Shown: positions 4,546 to 26,715 of the stretch, piece after piece
How the letters are laid out: every line of letters starts with the position of its first letter
Position numbering within the stretch: the first letter of the stretch is position 1
Origin: Escherichia coli
GTDB taxonomy: Bacteria; Pseudomonadota; Gammaproteobacteria; Enterobacterales; Enterobacteriaceae
Direction: 5' to 3' (one strand)
Length of the DNA: 64,000 bases
NCBI RefSeq assembly: GCF_044324875.1
Contig: NZ_CP172186.1
Program-made: the position numbers and the translations under genes
The notes under the pieces: generated by a model
Seen by the model: the letters and a program-made list of their open reading frames with translations, nothing else
Database searches by the model: none
Told to the model about the DNA's origin: nothing

Positions 4546-5109
4546 ATGGATATAATAGAAAAAAGAATCACAAAACGACACCTCAGTGAAAGTAAATTAT
4601 CAGGTGTAAATTATTACAATTGTATATTTGAACGAATACAGCTTGACAACTTTAACTTTCGCGATTGTGAGTTCGAAAAATGTCGCTTCGTAAACTGCTC
4701 AATAAAGAATTTAAAACTTAATTTTTTTAAACTTATTGACTGTGAATTCAAAGATTGTTTATTACAAGGAGTAAATGCAGCAGACATTATGTTTCCCTGT
4801 ACTTTTTCTCTTGTAAATTGTGATTTGAGATTTGTTGATTTTATTAGTTTACGGTTACAGAAATCTGTTTTTTTATCCAGTCGCTTCCGTGATTGTTTAT
4901 TTGAGGAAACAGACCTTCGTAAATCTGATTTTACTGGTTCGGAGTTTAATAATACAGAGTTCAGACATTCTGATTTGTCTCACTGTGATTTTTCAATGAC
5001 AGAAGGTCTCGATATAAATCCTGAGATAAACAGGATCTTATCTATAAAGATACCACAGGAAGCAGGTTTAAAAATACTTAAACGAATGGGAGTGGTTGTA
5101 GGGGGATGA
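4546..5109 (+). CDS. mcbG: Pentapeptide-repeat protein, McbG-like (microcin B17 immunity / gyrase protection; Qnr-like fold)
   Basis: 187 aa; MDIIEK... N-terminus and LGVVVGG C-terminus as in Qnr/McbG proteins; tandem pentapeptide repeats (CEFEKCRFVNCSIKNLKL...); AT-rich. Confidence 0.6.
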   Translation: MDIIEKRITKRHLSESKLSGVNYYNCIFERIQLDNFNFRDCEFEKCRFVNCSIKNLKLNFFKLIDCEFKDCLLQGVNAADIMFPCTFSLVNCDLRFVDFISLRLQKSVFLSSRFRDCLFEETDLRKSDFTGSEFNNTEFRHSDLSHCDFSMTEGLDINPEINRILSIKIPQEAGLKILKRMGVVVGG

Positions 5110-5511
5110 GGTGAGTAGACCCGCCGGTTGCCCGGACGGGCCCCTCCTCAGAACCGGACCTGCGGAACTACCGCATCCGGCTCCCGACAGATCAGTGTCC
5201 CCACACATATTTCAGAAAGAATGGAACATTGACTGAGTTCTCCATCTCGATGGGTATCCCAGCATTTTGAGAATCAGATCCAGCTTTTCTCATGTCATTG
5301 GGTGTGGGGTTTGAAGCCCAATGGAGCGGAAACGTACGCTAAGAAGCTAACTATATGATTTTAAGTCAATAAAGTCGTGGCGTTGTTAGGCAGGTTTACG
5401 TTGATTTGATTACCGAGTTTATTAACACTGAAAGTCCCTGAAACCGCATGGCTACTGGCATTGACGGGAAGAGTAAACAAAACCCTCGTTTTCTTTACTC
5501 ACCTCTTCTGC

Positions 5512-5814
5512 TCAAAAAATGAACTTAGCGTACGATCTCGTACGGTTGGGCCTCAAACCCCTTGTATCAATAGATTCAGTCAATGATCGGAAAGCAATGC
5601 CACGAATTTTCAGGTCTTCAATAATTCGGAGCAAATGTGAGAGTGAACGACCAAGTCGATCCAGTTTCCAGACTATCAGTACATCACCTTCGCGAAGTTC
5701 AGCGAGACAGGACTTAAGTCCCGGGCGATTATCACGAGCACCTGAAGCATGATCCTGATGTAAATGCCGGGGATCCACTCCGGCAGCAATCAACGCATCA
5801 CGCTGTAAAGCAAC
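5512..5814 (-). pseudogene. Serine recombinase (resolvase/invertase) fragment, N-terminus removed by IS66-family insertion
   Basis: ...YVALQRDAL..SGARDNRPGL...GDVLIVWKLDRLGRSL...SLTESIDT matches Hin/Gin/resolvase catalytic domain; catalytic Ser region absent; premature end. Confidence 0.7.
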
Positions 5815-6500
5815 GTAAGCGTCAACGGAGCACCGTATTGACGCTTATTTATTGGTGAGTACTACGTTCCATGGCAGGAGTTCGTCAACTCGGTTGGAAA
5901 GCCATTCCGGCAGTACGCTCAGAATATGGCGCAGATACGCTTCCGGATCGATACCGTTCAGACGGCAGGTGCCGATCAGCCCGTACAGCAGTGCACCACG
6001 CTCGCCGCCGTGATCGCTACCGAAGAACACGTAATTTTTCTTTCCGAGACAGACTGCACGAAGCGCTCTTTCCGCTGTGTTATTGTCCGCCTCCGCCAGA
6101 CCGTCATCACAGAAGTTGCACAACGCAACCCAGTGCTTCCTGATATACCGGAACGCATCTCTCAGACGGCATTTTTTCGATAACGTGTGTTCTTTCTCCT
6201 GCATCAGCTTATACAGGGAAGTCAGTAGCGGTTTACTCTGCATTTGCCTGACCGCCAGGCGTTCAGACACCGGCAACCCGCGTATTTCGTGCTCAATGGC
6301 GTACAGTTCGGGCATCAGGATTATGCCGCTTTCCTCACAGAGAGGAATTATCGTAGCATTCCCCGTAGTGATGCCATGTGGCAACTGGCTGTCCAGCTGG
6401 GAAATAGTGGATTTATCAGGCCGCCGAAACTTACTCACGCTGATACACGTATTCGTATAGAGCCCTTTTTTAACGCTGAAAATGAATACGACTGACATCG
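5815..6500 (-). mobile_element. IS66-family element, 3' fragment with terminal IR
   Basis: Terminal GTAAGCGTCAACGGAGCACCGTATTGACG at 5815 resembles the IS66 IR; contains tnpC C-terminal coding region. Confidence 0.7.
5845..6498 (-). pseudogene. IS66-family TnpC, C-terminal fragment
   Basis: ...[54 protein letters not shown]... aligns with C-terminus of TnpC at 8504-10042. Confidence 0.8.
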
Positions 6501-17737: not shown

Positions 17738-18502
17738 CTAAACGATGAAATGAATGTGCTTTTTGCCGTGGTAAGGGGAGATCTCGATTTTGGTTTTCAC
17801 CCGGAAAACGTCCCACAGCAGCGCTTCGGACAAAATCTCCTCCGGCGTCCCGCTGGCGAGGATCTGCCCCTGCTGCATCACGATCAGCGAATCGCAGAAC
17901 ATCGCGGCATGGTTAAGATCGTGAATGGCCACAATGCTGGTTACCGGCAGCTCGCTGATCAACTGCATTAACTGCATCTGATGGTGTATATCCAGATGGT
18001 TGGTCGGCTCATCCAGCAGGATTTCGCTCGGGCTCTGCGCCAGCGCGCGGGCGATATGCACCCGCTGCCGCTCGCCGCCGGAGAGGCTTAACCATCCCTG
18101 TTCGCTTTTCTCCAGCATCGCTACCCGCTGCAGCGCGGCGGCAATCGCTTCGTCATCCTGAGCGCTCCAGTTTGAGAACGGAGAGTGGTGGGGAATGCGT
18201 CCCAGGCGCACGACGTCGCGCACCCGCATATTGGCCTCGGTCATGCCGTGTTGCTCGACGCAAGCCACGCGGCGGGCGAGCTGCTTTTTCGCCATCCGGG
18301 CGATATCCTGGCCGTCGAGGGTGACGCGACCTGCATCCGGGCGGCGCAGGCCCGCCAGAACGCGCAGCAGCGAGGATTTGCCGCAGCCGTTGGGCCCCAG
18401 CAGTCCGACCGTTTCTCCGCGCGGCACCCGCAGCGAGACATTATTGACGATGACCTTTTTGCCTGCCTTCCAGGTGATATTTTCAGCGCAAATACTCATC
18501 AC
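17738..18502 (-). CDS. ABC transporter ATP-binding protein (FecE/FepC-like, iron-chelate uptake)
   Basis: Walker A GPNGCGKSS, signature LSGGERQR, Walker B ILLDEPT. Confidence 0.9.
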   Translation of the reverse strand: MMSICAENITWKAGKKVIVNNVSLRVPRGETVGLLGPNGCGKSSLLRVLAGLRRPDAGRVTLDGQDIARMAKKQLARRVACVEQHGMTEANMRVRDVVRLGRIPHHSPFSNWSAQDDEAIAAALQRVAMLEKSEQGWLSLSGGERQRVHIARALAQSPSEILLDEPTNHLDIHHQMQLMQLISELPVTSIVAIHDLNHAAMFCDSLIVMQQGQILASGTPEEILSEALLWDVFRVKTKIEISPYHGKKHIHFIV

Positions 18503-19536
18503 TTATTCCTTGAGCGGTAGATAATCACGGCAAAGAAAGGCACCCCAACCAGGGCGGTTACTACCCCAACGGGCAGACTTTGCGGGGCAATCAGCAGGCG
18601 CGACGCAATGTCCGCCAGTACCATCAATATCGCCCCTGCCAGCGCGCTGGCGATCAGCAACGTTCGGTGCAGCGGGCCAAAGAAGAAACGCATCACGTGC
18701 GGCACCACCAGGCCAACAAAGCCGATTGAGCCGGCCATGCTGACGATGGTGGCGGTGATCAGCGCCGCAGTGGTGAAGAGGATCAGGCGCACGCGCGGCA
18801 CAGCAATCCCCAGCGAGGCGGCGGCATCGTCGCCGAAGGTGAACGCGTCCAGCGCCCGGGCATACCACAGGCAGACCGCCAGACCCGCGAGCACCACCAC
18901 GATGACCAACTGGAATTCGGGCCAGCGGACGCCGCTGAAGCTGCCCAGCAGCCAGAACATCACATCGCGCGCCTGCTGCGCGCTGGCGGTGGTGCTGATG
19001 GTATAGGCCGTGATGGCGTTAAATAACTGCGAGGCGGCGACGCCCGCAAGAATCGTACGCTCATTGCCGCCGCGCGCGCCGTTAGTCAGCAAGGCGACAA
19101 AGGCGAAGGCGGCGAAGGCCCCGGCAAAGGCGCCTGCCGAGAGGGAAATTGCGCCAGAGCCAAGGCCCAGCACCACGATCGACACCGCGCCGGTGGAGGC
19201 CCCGGCGGAGACGCCGAGGACGTAGGGTTCGGCGAGGGCATTCTTCAGCAAGCTTTGCAGCACGACACCGCAGATAGCGAGGCCGGCGCCGCAGCAGGCG
19301 GCGACCAGCGCGCGGCTGAGGCGGAAATCCCAGATAACGCTCTCATAGATACGGTTGAGCGGCTCAGCGGTTAAGCCGGTTCTGTTGCTGATAGCATAAA
19401 AGACATTCTGCAGCGGGATGGCCAGCTCGCCAACGCTGACGCCCACAGCGATCACCAGCGCCAGCACGATCGCTGCCAGTACACACCAGCCGGTGAGCAG
19501 TATGCTGCGGCACGTCTCAATCGCGCCGACGCTCAT
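18499..19536 (-). CDS. ABC transporter permease (FecCD family)
   Basis: 345 aa, multi-TM; overlaps the ATPase gene start by 4 nt. Confidence 0.85.
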   Translation of the reverse strand: MSVGAIETCRSILLTGWCVLAAIVLALVIAVGVSVGELAIPLQNVFYAISNRTGLTAEPLNRIYESVIWDFRLSRALVAACCGAGLAICGVVLQSLLKNALAEPYVLGVSAGASTGAVSIVVLGLGSGAISLSAGAFAGAFAAFAFVALLTNGARGGNERTILAGVAASQLFNAITAYTISTTASAQQARDVMFWLLGSFSGVRWPEFQLVIVVVLAGLAVCLWYARALDAFTFGDDAAASLGIAVPRVRLILFTTAALITATIVSMAGSIGFVGLVVPHVMRFFFGPLHRTLLIASALAGAILMVLADIASRLLIAPQSLPVGVVTALVGVPFFAVIIYRSRNK

Positions 19537-20534
19537 CAGTTCAGCCCCATTTTTCTCAGCTGCTCGCCCACCTGCTCCGCGCCGTAAAGCGTGCGAATGG
19601 TCGGATTCATCGCCTGACCGTCCATGACCACGATATGGCCTTTTTTCACCGCCTCCAGCTGGCTGACGGCGGGATCGCTTTTGAGGAATTTGATCTTCTC
19701 CTCGGCTTTATCCAGCGCCCAGCGGTTACGATCCAGGCTGGCGACCACGATCACATCCGGGTTGGCGGCAATAATGCTCTCCCAGCTCACCGTGGGCCAC
19801 TCGGTTTCGGAGGTAATCGCATTATGTCCGCCCAGCACGCTGGCGATAAATCCGGAGGCGCTGTTTTTGCCGCCGACATAGGCATCGGCCGAAGGTGAGG
19901 CGCTGGAGAACCAGAAGACGAAGGAGAGATCCTTTTTGCTTTTACCAAACTCCTGGCGCAGGTCGGCTTCACGTTTTTTGAAATCGGCAATCAGCGCCTG
20001 ACCACGATCTTCGACGTTGAAAATGCGGGAAAAATCGCTAATTTCCTGATACAGCCAGGTCATATCCCACAGCTTTTGCCGGCTGCCGTACATATCGCCG
20101 GTGGCCTTTTTGGTGGCGCACACCCCCGGTGAGACGTAGCTGTTCACGCCGACGGTGGCGAGATCTTCACGCCTGGCGACTTTGCTTTCCGGCCCCAGCA
20201 GCAGCGGCAACTGGGCGGGAACGAAATCAGGATTTTGCGCCAGCACCGATTCCAGGCTCGGAATTTCCACCGTCAAGGTTTTAATCTTCGCGTTTTGCTC
20301 AGCCAGCTGCGGTAAAACGCTGGTCGGCCAGAAGGCGCTGGCGACCACCTGCTTTTGCAGCCCGAGCAGCAGCAGAATTTCGACCGTATTTTGCCCCAGC
20401 GCGACCACGCGCTCCGGCGGCCGGGTGAAGGTCTCCTGATAGCCGCAGTTTTCAATCGTCAGGGGGTAGGTTGTTGCCAGCGCGGAACTGACGGCGGTGA
20501 ACATCAAGCCTAACGCGCAAAGGACCTTCTTCAT
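19536..20534 (-). CDS. Periplasmic substrate-binding protein (iron-siderophore/heme/B12 class)
   Basis: 332 aa with N-terminal signal peptide MKKVLCALGLMFTAVSSALA; first gene of a four-gene operon. Confidence 0.8.
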   Translation of the reverse strand: MKKVLCALGLMFTAVSSALATTYPLTIENCGYQETFTRPPERVVALGQNTVEILLLLGLQKQVVASAFWPTSVLPQLAEQNAKIKTLTVEIPSLESVLAQNPDFVPAQLPLLLGPESKVARREDLATVGVNSYVSPGVCATKKATGDMYGSRQKLWDMTWLYQEISDFSRIFNVEDRGQALIADFKKREADLRQEFGKSKKDLSFVFWFSSASPSADAYVGGKNSASGFIASVLGGHNAITSETEWPTVSWESIIAANPDVIVVASLDRNRWALDKAEEKIKFLKSDPAVSQLEAVKKGHIVVMDGQAMNPTIRTLYGAEQVGEQLRKMGLN

Positions 20535-20585
20535 TAAACGCTATCCTTGTAAACAGGCGAGTGGATGACCAGCAAATGGGAGTAA

Positions 20586-20607
20586 TGCAAATGAAACTCA
20601 TTATTAT
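20586..20607. promoter_or_regulatory. Fur-box-like site upstream of the ABC importer operon
   Basis: GCAAATGAAACTCATTATTATC; 14 of 19 matches to GATAATGATAATCATTATC, 50-70 bp upstream of the start codon. Confidence 0.45.
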
Positions 20608-20647
20608 CGCGGGGTTTTATACAATGCCATATTTACAGTGTCAATGT

Positions 20648-20850
20648 GTTCTTGCCCCCTTATTTCCAGACAGGGGTTGTATCTTAAGTTAATGTTACCC
20701 GCTGACGTCGATATTCTCGCGGAGAGCGATAACCCAACGCACTGTGCGGATGGTTTTCATTGTAATGTTCGATCGCCACTGCAAGATTATGCAATGCCGT
20801 TCTTACATTCGGTTTCGGCATGAACGCGATGTAGTCTTCCTTGGGGTCCG
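20648..20850 (-). mobile_element. Remnant of an IS2-related element (right end with IR)
   Basis: TTGCCCCCTTATTTCCAGACA ... GAGCGATAACCCAACGCACTGTGCGGATGG resembles the IS2 right end at 61063-61260 at roughly 75-80 percent identity. Confidence 0.5.
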
Positions 20851-20888
20851 CCTGGAAAACGGAAAATATCCCACGCTAAGACTATTTT

Positions 20889-21479
20889 CTATACAGTAAC
20901 AGTTTGCTGTTTCGCTCTAACTCTCAGAATTGTTTGCCGTGTGGTTCGGAATTCCCTGGCAATAGCACTTATACTTGCCCCAGACTTAATGTGTTCGAGT
21001 ACCTTCTGTTTTTGTTCTTCATTTAATACCGGTGGGCGACCAAAACGTTTTCCTGCATCCCGTGCTCTTGCTATCCCTGAATAAGTTCGTTCAAGTAAAA
21101 GATCTCGTTCAAATTCAGCGACCGCTGAAATCACTTGCATTGTCATTTTTCCTGCCGGACTGGTCAGATCAACACCACCTAATGCCAGGCAATGTACCCT
21201 GATGCCAGATTCGGTCAGTTGCTCCACTGTTTTCCTGATATCCATTGCATTACGACCGAGGCGATCCAGTTTTGTGACTATCAATACATCGCCACTTTCC
21301 AGACGATCAAGCAACCGGTTAAAACCTGGACGTTCACTGGCTGCTACTGATCCACTAATTTGTTCTTCGATTATTCGTTGGGGTCTGACGTTAAAACCCG
21401 CGCTTTCGATTTCCCGACGTTGATTTTCGGTCGTCTGTTCCAGAGTGGAAACCCGACAATAGGCAAAAATTCGAGACAT
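20889..21479 (-). CDS. Serine recombinase (resolvase) with C-terminal HTH
   Basis: 196 aa [15 protein letters not shown]... (catalytic Ser), ...[11 protein letters not shown]... Confidence 0.9.
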
Positions 21480-21521
21480 AGTGAGATCTTCTGTACGAAA
21501 TGGGTGTACATATTATAATGC

Positions 21522-21594
21522 ATGTCCGAAAGTAATTTCGCTGACTTTCGGATATATCTGTTTAACAATGTCCGAAACCGGTCGATTTCGGACA
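21522..21594. promoter_or_regulatory. res-like site: palindromic subsites upstream of the resolvase gene
   Basis: TGTCCGAAA-N8-TTTCGGACA perfect dyad at 21569-21594 plus TGTCCGAAAG...CTTTCGGATA at 21522-21555. Confidence 0.5.
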
Positions 21595-21979
21595 CCAAAA
21601 CCACTGTTGTCCCGCCATTCTGGCGATTCCTGAAAGCCCTTTGGCTAAAAAATAGTCTTAACATGGTTTATTTTCCGAATTCCAAACTGACCCCGCTAAC
21701 GCGGAGATACGTCCCGACTTCGGGTAAACCCTCGTCGGGACCACTCCGACCGCGCACAGAAGCTCTCTCATGGCTGAAAGCGGGTATGGCTTAGCAGGGC
21801 TGGGGATGGGTAAGGTGAAATCTATCAATCAGTACCGGCTTACGCCGGGCTTCGGCGGTTTTACTCCTGTGCCATATGCAACAACGGAGTGCCGCCTTAC
21901 ATGCGCTGACGCGCATTATTTGCCTTGTTCCGTCTGAAACTAATCACTATGATTAAATATGATTAACAACTAATCGGGT

Positions 21980-22264
21980 ATGCAAATGAAAAACAATACC
22001 GCACAGGCAACAAAAGTCATTACCGCGCATGTGCCATTACCAATGGCTGATAAAGTCGACCAGATGGCCGCCAGACTGGAACGCTCCCGGGGCTGGGTTA
22101 TCAAACAGGCGCTTTCTGCATGGCTTGCCCAGGAGGAGGAGCGTAATCGCCTGACGCTGGAAGCCCTGGACGATGTGAAATCCGGACAGGTTATCGACCA
22201 TCAGGCTGTACAGGCCTGGGCGGACAGCCTCAGTACTGACAATCCGTTACCGGTGCCACGCTGA
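21980..22264 (+). CDS. RHH (CopG/ParD-like) antitoxin
   Basis: 94 aa; precedes and abuts a RelE/ParE-like toxin gene. Confidence 0.75.
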   Translation: MQMKNNTAQATKVITAHVPLPMADKVDQMAARLERSRGWVIKQALSAWLAQEEERNRLTLEALDDVKSGQVIDHQAVQAWADSLSTDNPLPVPR

Positions 22265-22539
22265 TGGAACTGAAGTGGACCAGTAAGGCGCTTTCTGATT
22301 TGGCGCGGTTATATGATTTTCTGGTGCTGGCCAGTAAACCTGCGGCCACCAGAACGGTGCAGTCCCTGACACAGGCACCGGTCATTCTGTTAACTCATCC
22401 ACGTATGGGAGAACAGTTGTTTCAGTTTGAACCCAGGGAGGTCAGACGGATTTTTGCTGGCGAGTACGAAATCCGTTACGAACTTAATGGCCAGACTATT
22501 TATGTATTGCGCCTGTGGCACACACGAGAAAACAGGTAG
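22264..22539 (+). CDS. RelE/ParE-family toxin
   Basis: 91 aa MELKWTSKALSDLARLYDFL...IYVLRLWHTRENR. Confidence 0.8.
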   Translation: MELKWTSKALSDLARLYDFLVLASKPAATRTVQSLTQAPVILLTHPRMGEQLFQFEPREVRRIFAGEYEIRYELNGQTIYVLRLWHTRENR

Positions 22540-22644
22540 ATTGTGTGTGGGGACAACTTAACATAGCCTGCAGATATTAATTCTGGAACATTATTATCAG
22601 GCCAGATATTTTTCATTCCATTAAATAATCTTGTAGGAGATAAA

Positions 22645-22884
22645 ATGAATTACGATGAAATAACGAAAATTACCGCTGAACGTATTAGCGACTACATGAC
22701 CGAAGCAGTTAATACAGACTCTATAGCCGTTGCGGAAATGTTTCATAACGCTGCATGGGGAGTGCGAACATTGTGGTTTGAACTCGTCACAAAAATAGAT
22801 ATGGATATACATAAAAAGAACAGGTATGCGAGTTATGATCTTAGAAGGAAAATCGAAATACAGCATGAAGAGTTTCACGTATAG
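22645..22884 (+). CDS. Hypothetical small protein (low GC)
   Basis: 79 aa ORF with GGAG RBS (AGGAGATAAAATG); no recognisable motif. Confidence 0.3.
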
Positions 22885-23046
22885 GAAATTGAAAAACTAA
22901 GCGATACCACTGTCCGCGTCTTATGCCTCGTGCGGTAAGCTGTTTTTCACATCACGCCGGTGTTTTTTCTCTCTGCGTGGTCGGTTTTTATACTGCGGAT
23001 GGGGTTTTTTATCCTTTCCCCGGATTGCTGACACACTTACCCTGTA

Positions 23047-24339
23047 TCAGGCCGGCACATACCTCAGCAGACTGATATCCCGCGCGTTTTTCTTCAGCCC
23101 TGATACATTCAGCCCCGCAAGGGCCCGGCGGTATACCATCCGGCCGCCACACAGCACGCATTCGAACGGGTCACGACTCAGGAACTGTTTCACCATTTGT
23201 GCATAGCACACTTTCGCCACCGGTTCCGGTTTATCCATCCCCAGAGCTCGGTACACCTGCGGCAGCTTCTCTCCACACCCCCGGTTGGCAAGGAACCCGA
23301 AGTACCTCACCATCTTAAAAAACTTCTCCGGGATGTGCTGTTTCATCCTCGCGACCAGCTCACGCTGCGTCAGCGTTTCCGTCGCTGTCTCTCCCGTTTT
23401 GTGGTCCAGGTAACGGAAGCTCAGGCTCGCCCCTCCGTTGTAATGTGCCAGCCGGGAAGCCGCTATTGGTGGCTTCTTCAGATAACGACCCAGGTAGCGT
23501 GCCGTATTCCGCCCGCCGGCCGTCTTCTTCGACATGTACACATGCCAGTATTTTCCGCCGGCTTTCAGCACCAGGCTTCTCCACTGTGATTCCGTCGTGA
23601 TATGTGACAACGACTCCGGCATCGCCATCCCCTCTGACCACGCTTTCAGAAGCAACTGCCGTATATTCCACATCCACCGCGAACGCATTGCGTCTTTCAG
23701 GAAGCTCAGCTTTTTCCACTGACCGTGCTTATTCAGCCCCCCGCAGGTTACTGACACATGTACATGCGGATGCCAGTTGAGACGACGGCCATATGTGTGG
23801 ATGGCGCAGAAGATACCGGGTTCCAGCCCCCGTTTTCGGGCGGCATACAGCAGCCAACGGTTGCTTTCGAACACCGGCCACAGCGTGTCCGGCAGGGTGA
23901 AGACCAGGTGTACCCAGTCGCAGTCAGGAAGACGATTCAGCTGTGTCGCTGTCCACAGGTCTGTGGCCTTTTTTCCGCAGGACGGGCAGGCACGGCTGCC
24001 ACATGAGTTAGTGACGTATCTGACGTGGGGACAGTCAGGTTTATCGCAGTTGTATTCCTTCACGCCCAGTATCCGCGTGCCGCAGGCCAGCATTTTGGTG
24101 ACAGCCTCAACCTCGATATCGCGCAGACCGCCCGCATCCAGGAAGGACGTCCAGCACTGGTTGGCTGTGAACAGGCGTTTCAGCGGACGGGGCTGAAAAT
24201 CACCACCACTTCGGGTCATCCATCCTGCACGCTCCATCTGATAATGTTCTGACAGGTAAAAATAATATCCTGCATGATTTGTGTGCTCATGATTTCTGAT
24301 AATATCAGATATTGTTTTATCATCAATGATGAAAACCAT
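23047..24339 (-). CDS. IS91-family rolling-circle transposase (HUH, Y2)
   Basis: N-terminal Zn-finger CPHVRYVTNSCGSRACPSCG; HUH-like HTYGRRLNWHPHVHV; element ends not delimited. Confidence 0.85.
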   Translation of the reverse strand: MVFIIDDKTISDIIRNHEHTNHAGYYFYLSEHYQMERAGWMTRSGGDFQPRPLKRLFTANQCWTSFLDAGGLRDIEVEAVTKMLACGTRILGVKEYNCDKPDCPHVRYVTNSCGSRACPSCGKKATDLWTATQLNRLPDCDWVHLVFTLPDTLWPVFESNRWLLYAARKRGLEPGIFCAIHTYGRRLNWHPHVHVSVTCGGLNKHGQWKKLSFLKDAMRSRWMWNIRQLLLKAWSEGMAMPESLSHITTESQWRSLVLKAGGKYWHVYMSKKTAGGRNTARYLGRYLKKPPIAASRLAHYNGGASLSFRYLDHKTGETATETLTQRELVARMKQHIPEKFFKMVRYFGFLANRGCGEKLPQVYRALGMDKPEPVAKVCYAQMVKQFLSRDPFECVLCGGRMVYRRALAGLNVSGLKKNARDISLLRYVPA

Positions 24340-24576
24340 ATCTGATATGATTTTATATATATTTCTTAATTATCATATCATTTGCGTCTTTTCTGCCGCG
24401 CAGATCCGGTTTCCGGCTAAGTCGGATCGACCTAATCTTTGTTTCTGATATGAACACCTCGGAGAGGTGTAAGCAATGGTATAAACGAAATGTATTATGT
24501 ATCTGCATCACAGCATGCGGGCACATTTTGCGGAAGGATATGAATCCCCCCGGAATAACTGGCAAAGGACAGATAA

Positions 24577-26715
24577 ATGGACATTGAAATACGCCACTGC
24601 AATAACATCGTACGAGCACATATCACCCTCACTGCCGATAAACTGAACATTAAGTTTGCGCCAAATGGTACTGGAAAAAGTACGCTGTCACGGGCCATAA
24701 GCTGTGCGGCGCGGGACGACATTCAGGGACTACAGGCACTGATGCCCTTCCGGCTGCGCGGAGAAAACCCCGATAGCACCGGGCCCATTGTCATCGGTGC
24801 TGACGGGATTGGGGACGTGATGTGCTTCAACGAGGAGTACGTCAGTCAGTTTACGTTCCAACCGGACGAGCTCATCAGTGATAGCTTTAATATTCTTATC
24901 CGCAATCAAGCCCATGCGGAAAGAGAGCGTGAAATAGAAGAAATGACGCAAAAGATCCGGGCTGTTTTCACGGATCACACTGAGCTGAACTCTCTGATAG
25001 ACCATCTACAGGAACTCAGTAATGCTTTCAGATCAACCAGTTCCGGGATTTCACGTTCTTCAACCGGCATGAGAGGTCTGTCAGGCGGAAATAAAATACA
25101 CCACATTCCGGCTGGTCTTGAGAACTATCAACCCTACATCCGCAGTGAACGCCGCGTGGAATGGATTGACTGGCAGACAAAGGGACTCGAGTTTTCGCCC
25201 CTTTCGGATGGCTGCTGTCCGTTCTGTACCGGTGATATCACGGGAAAGGAAGCACAAATTCGCCAAGTCAGAGAGGAATACGATAAATCCACCATTAAAA
25301 ACCTGACCGCTATCATCAGACTGGTGGAAAACCTCGGTAATTACCTGACGGAGAGCGCCAGAGAACGCCTTCTGGCCATTACTATGCTTCAGAACGGTCC
25401 GGAAGCCGAACATATCGAGTACCTAGTGGCGTTGAAACGCCAGACCGATACGCTGACAGAGAAACTCACTGCGCTGAGAGGCCTGAATGTTTTCAGCCTG
25501 CAGGAACAGCAGAACGTTCGGGAGGTGCTCACTGCCAGGTTGATTGACCTGCAGTTCTTCCCTGATCTGCAATCCGAACTCATGCAGGGGATCACCGACA
25601 GACTGAACGCGGCCCTTATGGACCTGATAAACCTTGCCGGACCGCTGCAGGGAAAAATTAACCGGCACCGGGACAGCATGATCCGGCTGATCGCACAGCA
25701 CAAAACAAACATCAATAATTTCCTCACTTATGCAGGCTATAAATACAGGGTGGATATAGCCGGCGAGGGAGAGCAGAGAAAACTCAGGCTACGACACATA
25801 GATTTTGACGGGTACGTCAGCGGCGGTAGCCAGCATCTCAGCTATGGAGAACGGAACGCCTTTGCGATTGTGTTATTCATGTATGAATGCCTGTCAAAAA
25901 ACCCGGGACTGATTATCCTTGATGATCCCATATCTTCTTTTGATAAAAACAAGAAGTTTGCCATTCTTGAAATGCTGTTCAGACGTGCAAGTGGTGAATG
26001 CCTGAAGAACCGGACTGTACTTATGCTGACGCATGACGTGGAGCCTGTGATTGACACGCTGAAGTCAGTCAGAAGGTTGTTCAGTAATCAGGTGACCGCC
26101 TCCTGCCTGCGCCTGTCTGCTGGAGTCATAGAAGAATTACCTGTTAACGACGGCGATATCATGACATTCATGCAGATCTGCAAATCCATCACCGCGTCAG
26201 CAGACTGTGAGGAGATCATTAAGCTCATCTATCTTCGTCGCTACTTTGAAATCGTTGACGAACGTGGTGATGCTTATCAGCTTCTATCCAATCTATTCCA
26301 TCGACGCGTCGTCCCGCTGGATTATCGCGAGCCTGCCGCTGCGGGCTCGGGCTATCCCAAAATGGCTCCTGAGAAAATTCAGCAGGCCTTGCGGGATATC
26401 CGGGAGTATGTGGACAGTTTTGATTACCCGCGACTTCAGGCTCTCGTCAGCAGCCCAGATGAAATAAAAAACCTGTACCGTCGCTGTCGTAACGGCTATG
26501 AAAAACTGCAGGTATTCCGTTTACTGGAACTGGATCAGGACCATCCGGTAATACGAAAATTCGTTAACGAAACGTACCACATTGAAAATGAGTTCATCTG
26601 TCAACTAGATCCGTCCAGATTCGATCTCATCCCGGAGTACGTGATTATGGAATGTGACAAGCTCATCGCCCTGCCACCGGCAGCAAACCAGAGCTCGGTT
26701 GCCCGTATCGCTTGA
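24577..26715 (+). CDS. Solitary ABC-type ATPase with long coiled-coil insert containing a CxxC motif and an unassigned C-terminal domain (RloC/Rad50-like architecture); candidate defence protein
   Basis: 712 aa; Walker A FAPNGTGKST (aa 27-36); CPFC at about aa 209; signature-like LSYGER, Walker B LIILDDP, H-loop LMLTHD; last 220 aa without known motif. Confidence 0.6.
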   Translation: MDIEIRHCNNIVRAHITLTADKLNIKFAPNGTGKSTLSRAISCAARDDIQGLQALMPFRLRGENPDSTGPIVIGADGIGDVMCFNEEYVSQFTFQPDELISDSFNILIRNQAHAEREREIEEMTQKIRAVFTDHTELNSLIDHLQELSNAFRSTSSGISRSSTGMRGLSGGNKIHHIPAGLENYQPYIRSERRVEWIDWQTKGLEFSPLSDGCCPFCTGDITGKEAQIRQVREEYDKSTIKNLTAIIRLVENLGNYLTESARERLLAITMLQNGPEAEHIEYLVALKRQTDTLTEKLTALRGLNVFSLQEQQNVREVLTARLIDLQFFPDLQSELMQGITDRLNAALMDLINLAGPLQGKINRHRDSMIRLIAQHKTNINNFLTYAGYKYRVDIAGEGEQRKLRLRHIDFDGYVSGGSQHLSYGERNAFAIVLFMYECLSKNPGLIILDDPISSFDKNKKFAILEMLFRRASGECLKNRTVLMLTHDVEPVIDTLKSVRRLFSNQVTASCLRLSAGVIEELPVNDGDIMTFMQICKSITASADCEEIIKLIYLRRYFEIVDERGDAYQLLSNLFHRRVVPLDYREPAAAGSGYPKMAPEKIQQALRDIREYVDSFDYPRLQALVSSPDEIKNLYRRCRNGYEKLQVFRLLELDQDHPVIRKFVNETYHIENEFICQLDPSRFDLIPEYVIMECDKLIALPPAANQSSVARIA

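Follow-up and report, generated by a model that had tools for sequence, protein, structure and literature searches.

A putative res site and its resolvase gene in a transposase-less Tn3-family element of probable hybrid origin in Escherichia coli

The 64,000-nucleotide stretch of Escherichia coli DNA analysed here (contig NZ_CP172186.1 of NCBI RefSeq assembly GCF_044324875.1; in the following, the window) harbours on its minus strand, at 20889-21479, the gene tnpR, which encodes an intact small serine recombinase (resolvase) of 196 amino acids, together with palindromic sequences near its start codon. A sequence-only reading had placed these palindromes in the 5' region of the recombinase gene and proposed them as subsites of a res, i.e. 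the site at which a resolvase recombines DNA. Their position was verified: the open reading frame (ORF) 20889-21479 is on the minus strand, and the palindromes therefore lie upstream of it. TnpR matched the Pfam families Resolvase (E=1e-38) and HTH_7 (E=3e-9) and could be aligned over its full length with the gamma-delta and Tn3 resolvases, its catalytic residues S11, D72, R73 and R76 falling on S10, D67, R68 and R71 of the gamma-delta protein. Among the NCBIfam models, those for invertases gave 91 against a cut-off of 272 and those for recombinases remained below threshold; cluster names read only "recombinase family protein".

The letters TGTCCGAAACCGGTCGATTTCGGACA, which had been described as a perfect 26-bp dyad, are found at 21569-21594, exactly where they had been reported. 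The word perfect is appropriate for their outer 9-bp arms, TGTCCGAAA and TTTCGGACA, which are exact complements, but not for the whole 26-mer, whose symmetric pairs match in 11 of 13 cases; symmetry is lost at the GT in the centre and between positions 10 and 17. In the output of a repeat finder the 26-mer appears as two 12-nt arms (21569-21580 and 21583-21594) that are 92% complementary and 2 nt apart. The same tool recovered the second dyad reported for 21522-21555 (34 bp), which consists of TGTCCGAAAG-N12-CTTTCGGATA at 21523-21554 plus flanking A/T. An additional half-site, TGTACGAAA at 21492-21500, lies on the gene-proximal side and had been overlooked. Altogether, five half-sites of the type TGT[A/C]CGAAA are packed into 103 bp (21492-21594); three of them agree exactly with the family consensus and two have one mismatch, which makes them its best matches.

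These half-sites can be arranged into a putative res with two clear subsites and a tentative third. Site I, the putative crossover site, is the 26-bp palindrome at 21569-21594 with a 12-2-12 geometry (TGTCCGAAACCG GT CGATTTCGGACA), and site II, a putative accessory site, comprises the 32 bp at 21523-21554; the gap between them is 14 bp and their centres are 43 bp apart. A tentative site III (TGTACGAAATGGGTGTACA, 21492-21510) would be situated in the presumed 5' untranslated leader of tnpR. The hexamer TATAAT (21512-21517, minus strand), the likely -10 element of the tnpR promoter, separates sites II and III, and it or a one-off variant was present at the same alignment columns in 10 of 10 sequences. 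Because the assignment is based on the conserved TATAAT and not on a full sigma-70 consensus, the promoter is best regarded as putative. A literature search by half-site sequence returned irrelevant matches only. Rfam gave no match for 19000-24000 at E<=0.01, and the stretch at 21695-21900, GC-rich and structured in appearance, belongs to the replicon backbone and corresponds to no known RNA family.

The arrangement is conserved far beyond the window. A tblastn search of plasmids returned 1894 records with homologues of TnpR, down to approximately 55% identity, and the upstream regions of eight homologues with 72-99% amino-acid identity were compared, covering E. coli, Salmonella, Klebsiella, Serratia, Erwinia, Vibrio and Arsenophonus. 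Across these homologues the half-sites keep the same distances from the ATG, namely -115, -98, -75, -52 and -21. Conservation of the half-site columns ranges from 0.88 to 0.93 (0.88 and 0.93 for the half-sites of site I, 0.89 and 0.93 for those of site II, and a mean column identity of 0.92 for the half-site at 21492-21500), compared with 0.53 in the spacer between the dyads and 0.46 beyond the distal dyad. The central dinucleotide of site I varies among functional-looking relatives and can be AC, GT, TT or TA. The finding of the same half-sites with the same spacing in front of diverged homologues supports the proposal that the dyads are res subsites of the adjacent recombinase.

Gene and palindromes are enclosed by inverted repeats (IRs). 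The repeat finder paired 20843-20891 with 21646-21694 (49 nt, 80% complementary), and the outer 38 bp on each side start with GGGG and end with TAAG, which is the signature of Tn3-family termini. IR-L (GGGGTCCGCCTGGAAAACGGAAAATATCCCACGCTAAG, 20843-20880, plus strand) lies 8 bp from the tnpR stop codon, and IR-R is located at 21657-21694 on the minus strand, its reverse complement being GGGGTCAGTTTGGAATTCGGAAAATAAACCATGTTAAG. The element delimited in this way has 852 bp (20843-21694); it contains no transposase gene (tnpA), and tnpR is its sole ORF with a domain match. Hence, what the sequence-only reading had implied to be a multimer-resolution gene of the plasmid backbone is instead a module of a transposase-less Tn3-family element with 38-bp IRs.

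Positions 20843-21595 of the window are 97-98.6% identical to a 3815-bp transposon that was found in records L005 and L022 and has the order IR, tnpR (minus), res, tnpA (plus), IR. Its tnpA product has 994 amino acids and reaches 1193 bits (L005 copy) on the NCBIfam model Tn3 family transposase, which is also the only, generic name given to it there. The copy in L022 (4501-8315) is bounded by 38-bp IRs that match perfectly and is flanked by the 5-bp target duplication CTATA; it can thus be regarded as a bona fide Tn3-family element, while the L005 copy has no target duplication. The L022 TnpR is identical to that of the window in 195 of 196 residues, and IR-L of the window agrees in 37 of 38 positions with the perfect IRs of the transposon in both records. 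A literature search by size found no name for the 3815-bp transposon. In these relatives the proposed res sites lie between the divergent tnpR and tnpA, which supports their reading as a res, and the Vibrio homologue (L012) faces a Tn3-family tnpA as well.

The right part of the window element matches something else. Positions 21583-21694 (112 bp) share 95-97% identity with the right-hand portion of a miniature element (TIME) of 284 bp, which has Tn3-family IRs and no gene; it is present in L020 at 1329-1612, and further copies are located in L002 (2829-3113), L021 (1327-1612), L023 (1641-1925) and L018 (1501-1706), the first three of these sharing with L020 the quoted identity. The TIME-derived module (21583-21656) consists of the right half of site I and a 62-bp spacer leading to IR-R, which is identical in 37 of 38 positions to the IR-R of the TIME in L020. 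The 284-bp element carries a res-like array of its own, with a 32-bp site II, a 14-bp gap and a 26-bp site I. It is common on enterobacterial plasmids and matches 2363 plasmid records, among them IncF, IncI, IncK and small colicin plasmids, and often adjoins colicin or microcin immunity genes. No target duplication was found at the copies in L002, L020, L021 and L023, and the element is not among the TIMEs named in the accessible parts of the published descriptions.

The two similarities meet within site I. In the window this site combines the left arm TGTCCGAAACCG, the centre GT and the right arm CGATTTCGGACA; the transposon (L022) has the same left arm TGTCCGAAACCG and centre GT but the right arm CGTTTTCGGTCA, whereas the TIME (L020) has the left arm TGTACAGAATTG, the centre TA and the same right arm CGATTTCGGACA as the window. 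Similarity to the transposon stops, and that to the TIME starts, at dyad positions 15-16; window and transposon differ from position 16 or 17 onward. The junctions of homology among the window, the transposon, the TIME, L016 and L019 all fall within positions 13-16 of this dyad: in L019 the left arm of the TIME is retained and divergence follows, and in L016 the right module is joined to a left side that is unrelated. L006 retains site I together with the right module and is cut within site II. Hundreds of records share the same breakpoint, many of which descend from single events. Such a concentration of junctions in the middle of the dyad is what site-specific exchange would leave, and it points indirectly to site I as the crossover site; these mosaic plasmids, of several unrelated lineages, also support the proposed res function. 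We infer that strand exchange would occur in the middle of site I, i.e. at the GT at 21581-21582. Judged from these alignments, the window element is a hybrid with a left part from the transposon and a right part from the TIME. A simple internal deletion of tnpA was considered as another origin of the 852-bp element and rejected, because 21595-21646 is unlike the 3' end of the L005 tnpA, of which the IR region alone matches, yet 95-97% identical to the TIME. In L006 (pFORC31.4), IR-R and a res of which only site I and the right half of site II are left (4996-5243) adjoin, back to back, a further Tn3-type IR and a different recombinase gene of 213 amino acids, which suggests nested or adjacent Tn3-family elements.

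The flanks of the element are remnants on both sides. On the left, IR-L cuts the remnant of an IS3-family transposase gene (rve_3), of which a 3' fragment is left at 20684-20842, between iron ABC-transporter genes (17738-20534) and the element. On the right, the edge cuts a replicon remnant: sequence common to more than 5000 IncF/IncI plasmids, where it lies downstream of repA, begins just outside IR-R, at approximately 21692-21695. The piece 21695-21916, adjoining IR-R, is left over from a region that IncFII/IncI-type replicons have about 600 bp downstream of repA, and it carries a RepA4 label in one record; the repA gene itself is not included. With a 981-bp query made of the element and both flanks, 89 plasmids matched over at least 80%, and 139 plasmids matched at least 80% of the element itself. 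The full-length copy in L001, the flanks of which were aligned, has both flanks in common with the window, and the other records, compared by annotation only, show the same left neighbours.

Taken together, we consider it likely that 21492-21594 represents the res and 20889-21479 its resolvase TnpR, and that both belong to a hybrid, 852-bp, transposase-less Tn3-family element. The palindromes themselves are very probably the sites where the neighbouring resolvase binds and recombines DNA. By analogy with Tn3 and gamma-delta, dimers of TnpR would bind the three subsites built from TGT[A/C]CGAAA, and strands would be exchanged at the central GT of site I, while sites II and III would serve as accessory sites in the assembly of the synapse and in the repression of tnpR. 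The latter assumption stems from the fact that both sites flank the conserved TATAAT, and an autoregulation of tnpR through sites II and III may be inferred by the same analogy. Regarding its origin, the 3815-bp autonomous transposon would have supplied IR-L, tnpR, sites II and III and site I up to its middle, and a 284-bp TIME carrying a related res would have supplied the right half of site I, the 62-bp spacer and IR-R; a resolvase-mediated recombination between the two res at site I would be the most economical way to join them. On this plasmid, the module might resolve cointegrates or plasmid multimers that contain two directly repeated copies, and movement of the element would need a transposase provided in trans.

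Several observations speak against this interpretation. The central dinucleotides of the proposed parents differ, GT in the transposon and TA in the TIME, and such a mismatch normally blocks productive exchange; the sampled TIMEs are then not the exact parent, and either the true parent is unsampled or the mismatch was repaired. Furthermore, a TIME directly at this backbone junction, the parental arrangement to be expected, was not retrieved with a chimeric query, whose best matches have the TIME at a distance of about 230 bp, beyond that backbone piece. The window element has no 5-bp target duplication, its flanks being TCCTT and GCTAA. Site III forms no clean dyad: its region has one conserved half-site and, 12-13 bp upstream in all homologues, a GTACA element, so that inverted and direct pairing are both conceivable. 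A scan of 20800-21760 with sigma-70 and terminator consensus sequences gave nothing. Finally, among solved structures the best sequence matches are Gin invertases (E=7e-30, 107 bits), slightly ahead of resolvases (E=7e-25; 91 bits for gamma-delta).

The last point leads to the question whether the protein could be a DNA invertase of the Hin/Gin/Pin kind, for which the 26-bp dyad would pair with an inverted second copy so that the segment between them is flipped. The crossover sites hix, gix and pix have 26 bp and a 12-2-12 geometry, which is the geometry of the dyad here, and besides the Gin matches in the Protein Data Bank (PDB) the phage homologues are labelled "DNA invertase" in database records. 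A further argument of this kind, and likewise one to be held against our interpretation, is that the close relative PinQ is reported to invert the e14 P segment when over-produced (PMC12529663). Nevertheless, we regard an invertase as highly unlikely, since a second copy of the dyad, of the res or of the TIME is found nowhere else in the 64-kb window, which has a single site cluster, since a three-subsite array beside the gene is the layout of a resolvase and not of an invertase, and since near-identical genes are divergent from tnpA in a Tn3-family transposon with a target duplication. It is also improbable that the dyads now act only as operators, by which the protein would autoregulate its own promoter while a decayed res no longer recombines. 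The position of sites II and III around the conserved TATAAT would suit such a role, as would the hybrid site I with its one arm mismatch and non-palindromic centre, and the prophage copies of the pinR type do have clearly degenerate sites. But the half-sites of the window are the best consensus matches, the intact gene differs in one residue from that of the transposon with the target duplication, and the central dinucleotide is free to vary in relatives that look functional.

A very low probability also applies to the idea that the module is a native multimer-resolution system of the IncF backbone rather than part of a transposon. Homologues are indeed found beside partition genes on some plasmids, for example on pEA29 near parA/parG, and multimers could be resolved wherever the module lies, a functional point that has been made for the TIME-RES elements as well (PMC4133298). 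Against it stand the bracketing by Tn3-family IRs, the edges that cut an IS3-family remnant on the left and a replicon remnant on the right, and the distribution, because the right flank is so much more widespread than the element with or without its flanks. Multimer resolution as a present function is compatible with our interpretation, and the two are not exclusive. Practically no credence can be given to the assumption that the palindromes arose by chance in an AT-rich promoter region. A lone 9-bp inverted repeat is admittedly not rare in 64 kb, and the half-site 9-mer, with at most one mismatch, was counted 17 times in the window compared with 15 expected. Yet five of these 17 occurrences, including all three exact copies, cluster in the 103 bp upstream of tnpR, a clustering with a Poisson probability of roughly 7e-11 for a given 103-bp stretch and roughly 4e-8 once all such stretches are corrected for, with a motif that was picked after inspection. 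The clustering and the conservation of half-site position and spacing across genera have already effectively refuted the chance reading.

The genes pinR and pinQ, which belong to Rac- and Qin-type prophages and lie beside tail-fibre genes, are approximately 84% identical to the window tnpR at the DNA level, and their products are 84% identical to TnpR (163/193 residues). Of 5426 complete E. coli genomes, 3006 have a match, for the most part with 80-90% identity, and 11 records of lambdoid phages match as well; copies of the pinR/pinQ type include L007 1385-2390 (pinR of the K-12 Rac prophage) and L004 6985-7870. The similarity is not confined to the ORF but reaches recognisable remnants of IR-L, of the three subsites, of a TIME-type spacer and of IR-R, with z=7-10 for the flanks compared with shuffled sequences and 27-29 of 38 identical positions in IR-R. 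These remnants make pinR and pinQ look like old, decayed copies of this IR-tnpR-res-IR cassette. Unlike the window element, the prophage copies have dyads and IR tips that are degenerate, and both their annotation and published work treat them as invertases (PMC12529663). In the K-12 PinR (L007 1481-2071) residue 76 is Cys, while the window TnpR and its relatives have Arg76, which aligns with the catalytic R71 of gamma-delta; this PinR copy may thus be catalytically impaired. A study from 2025 treats PinQ as an invertase (PMC12529663); in the accessible text of that paper the term Tn3 is not used, and "transpos-" and "resolvase" appear only generically or in a cited title. We slightly favour the view that the IR-tnpR-res-IR unit of about 0.85 kb is an old, recurrent portable module of Enterobacterales and that pinR and pinQ, in the prophages and in functional lambdoid phages, are its fossils, i.e. 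former Tn3-family resolvases, each beside a decayed res of its own, and not classical phage invertases. If this were true, the inversion of the e14 P segment by PinQ would be an off-target activity of an ex-resolvase.

The sequence-only reading had mentioned a second, truncated resolvase gene at 5512-5814 (minus strand), and this gene fragment is real (Pfam Resolvase, E=4e-22). It is outside the element, consists of an ORF at 5512-5793 (minus strand) and is homologous to Resolvase at approximately 5560-5808, where it covers profile positions 18-106 of 145; hence, the N-terminus with the catalytic serine, the C-terminal third and the helix-turn-helix are missing. The fragment adjoins the remnant of an IS66-family transposase gene (5845-6498). 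It speaks neither for nor against the earlier redundancy in multimer resolution that had been read from it; by eye it belongs to another, Hin/Gin-like type, and it stands beside insertion sequence debris. Both recombinase genes of the window are associated with debris of mobile elements. Just downstream of the fragment, an ORF of 187 amino acids (4546-5109) consists of pentapeptide-like repeats and may resemble a microcin or quinolone-type immunity protein.

Other genes were noticed to the right of the 852-bp element. The replicon remnant is directly followed by an intact gene pair (21980-22539) for a ribbon-helix-helix (CopG-type) antitoxin and a ParE-family toxin. Farther right, at 23047-26715, there is an ORF of 430 amino acids, by eye a candidate IS91-family transposase, and then one of 712 amino acids with an N-terminal ATPase-like motif. 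Close to the same piece of backbone, L015 and L016 also have annotated IS91-family genes.

Regarding its significance, an insertion of the transposon and a res-mediated recombination would explain how the iron-transport region of the window came to be joined to a replicon remnant. The locus likely marks an active hot spot of site-specific recombination that is able to delete, fuse or resolve plasmid DNA. By comparison, our data also define the probable res of a widespread, uncharacterised TnpR clade, which is built from TGT[A/C]CGAAA half-sites, with 26 bp in site I, 32 bp in site II and a centre that varies. Moreover, the 284-bp element with its putative res is carried by thousands of IncF, IncI and Col plasmids, which might offer many potential partners for resolvase-driven remodelling. 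Current concepts are not changed by these findings, since the 852-bp element is of an ordinary, already described kind.

Its closest counterparts are the TIME-RES elements of Pseudomonas, which were described as non-autonomous elements that have Tn3-family IRs but lack tnpA (Szuplewska et al. 2014, PLoS One; PMC4133298). According to the accessible text of that paper, their core of tnpR and res is nearly identical to that of an autonomous transposon, the stretch adjacent to IRR is common to TIMEs, and the whole is read as a hybrid, portable recombination system (PMC4133298). The window element likewise has such IRs and lacks tnpA, shares its IRR side with TIMEs and has a core of tnpR and res nearly identical to that of an autonomous transposon; since its left part matches the transposon and its right 112 bp match the TIME, it can be regarded as a hybrid of the same kind. 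It differs by its occurrence on plasmids of Enterobacterales instead of Pseudomonas, by a resolvase of 196 amino acids compared with 309 amino acids of the Tn5563 type, and by the sequences of IRs and res. In addition, TIME-RES was caught while transposing into a trap plasmid, whereas the copy in the window has no target duplication; on the other hand, the hybrid junction can here be located to the middle of res site I.

Compared with Tn3 and gamma-delta, the system shares a small serine recombinase with a C-terminal helix-turn-helix, a res placed, in the full-length relatives, between tnpR and tnpA in divergent orientation, subsites (two clear ones and a tentative third) with inverted half-sites starting with TGT, a site II that is 6 bp longer than site I, and putative accessory sites that overlap the presumed tnpR promoter region. 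The match over the whole protein is only moderate (E~1e-24), the half-site is TGT[A/C]CGAAA, the centre is GT and not a palindromic AT or TA, and site III is atypical. In Tn3, site I has 28 bp and site II 34 bp, whereas the corresponding sites here have 26 bp and 32 bp, respectively. The res of about 103 bp is also somewhat shorter than that of Tn3, which has 114 bp and three dimer sites (PMC2602789). Finally, miniature elements with a res are already on record, namely IS101 with a functional one and TIME244 with a putative one of the Tn21 type (PMC13367494, in its accessible part). The 284-bp element (L020 1329-1612) resembles both in combining Tn3-family IRs with an internal res array, but its Tn21-like IRs are accompanied by a putative res that belongs to the TGT[A/C]CGAAA family.

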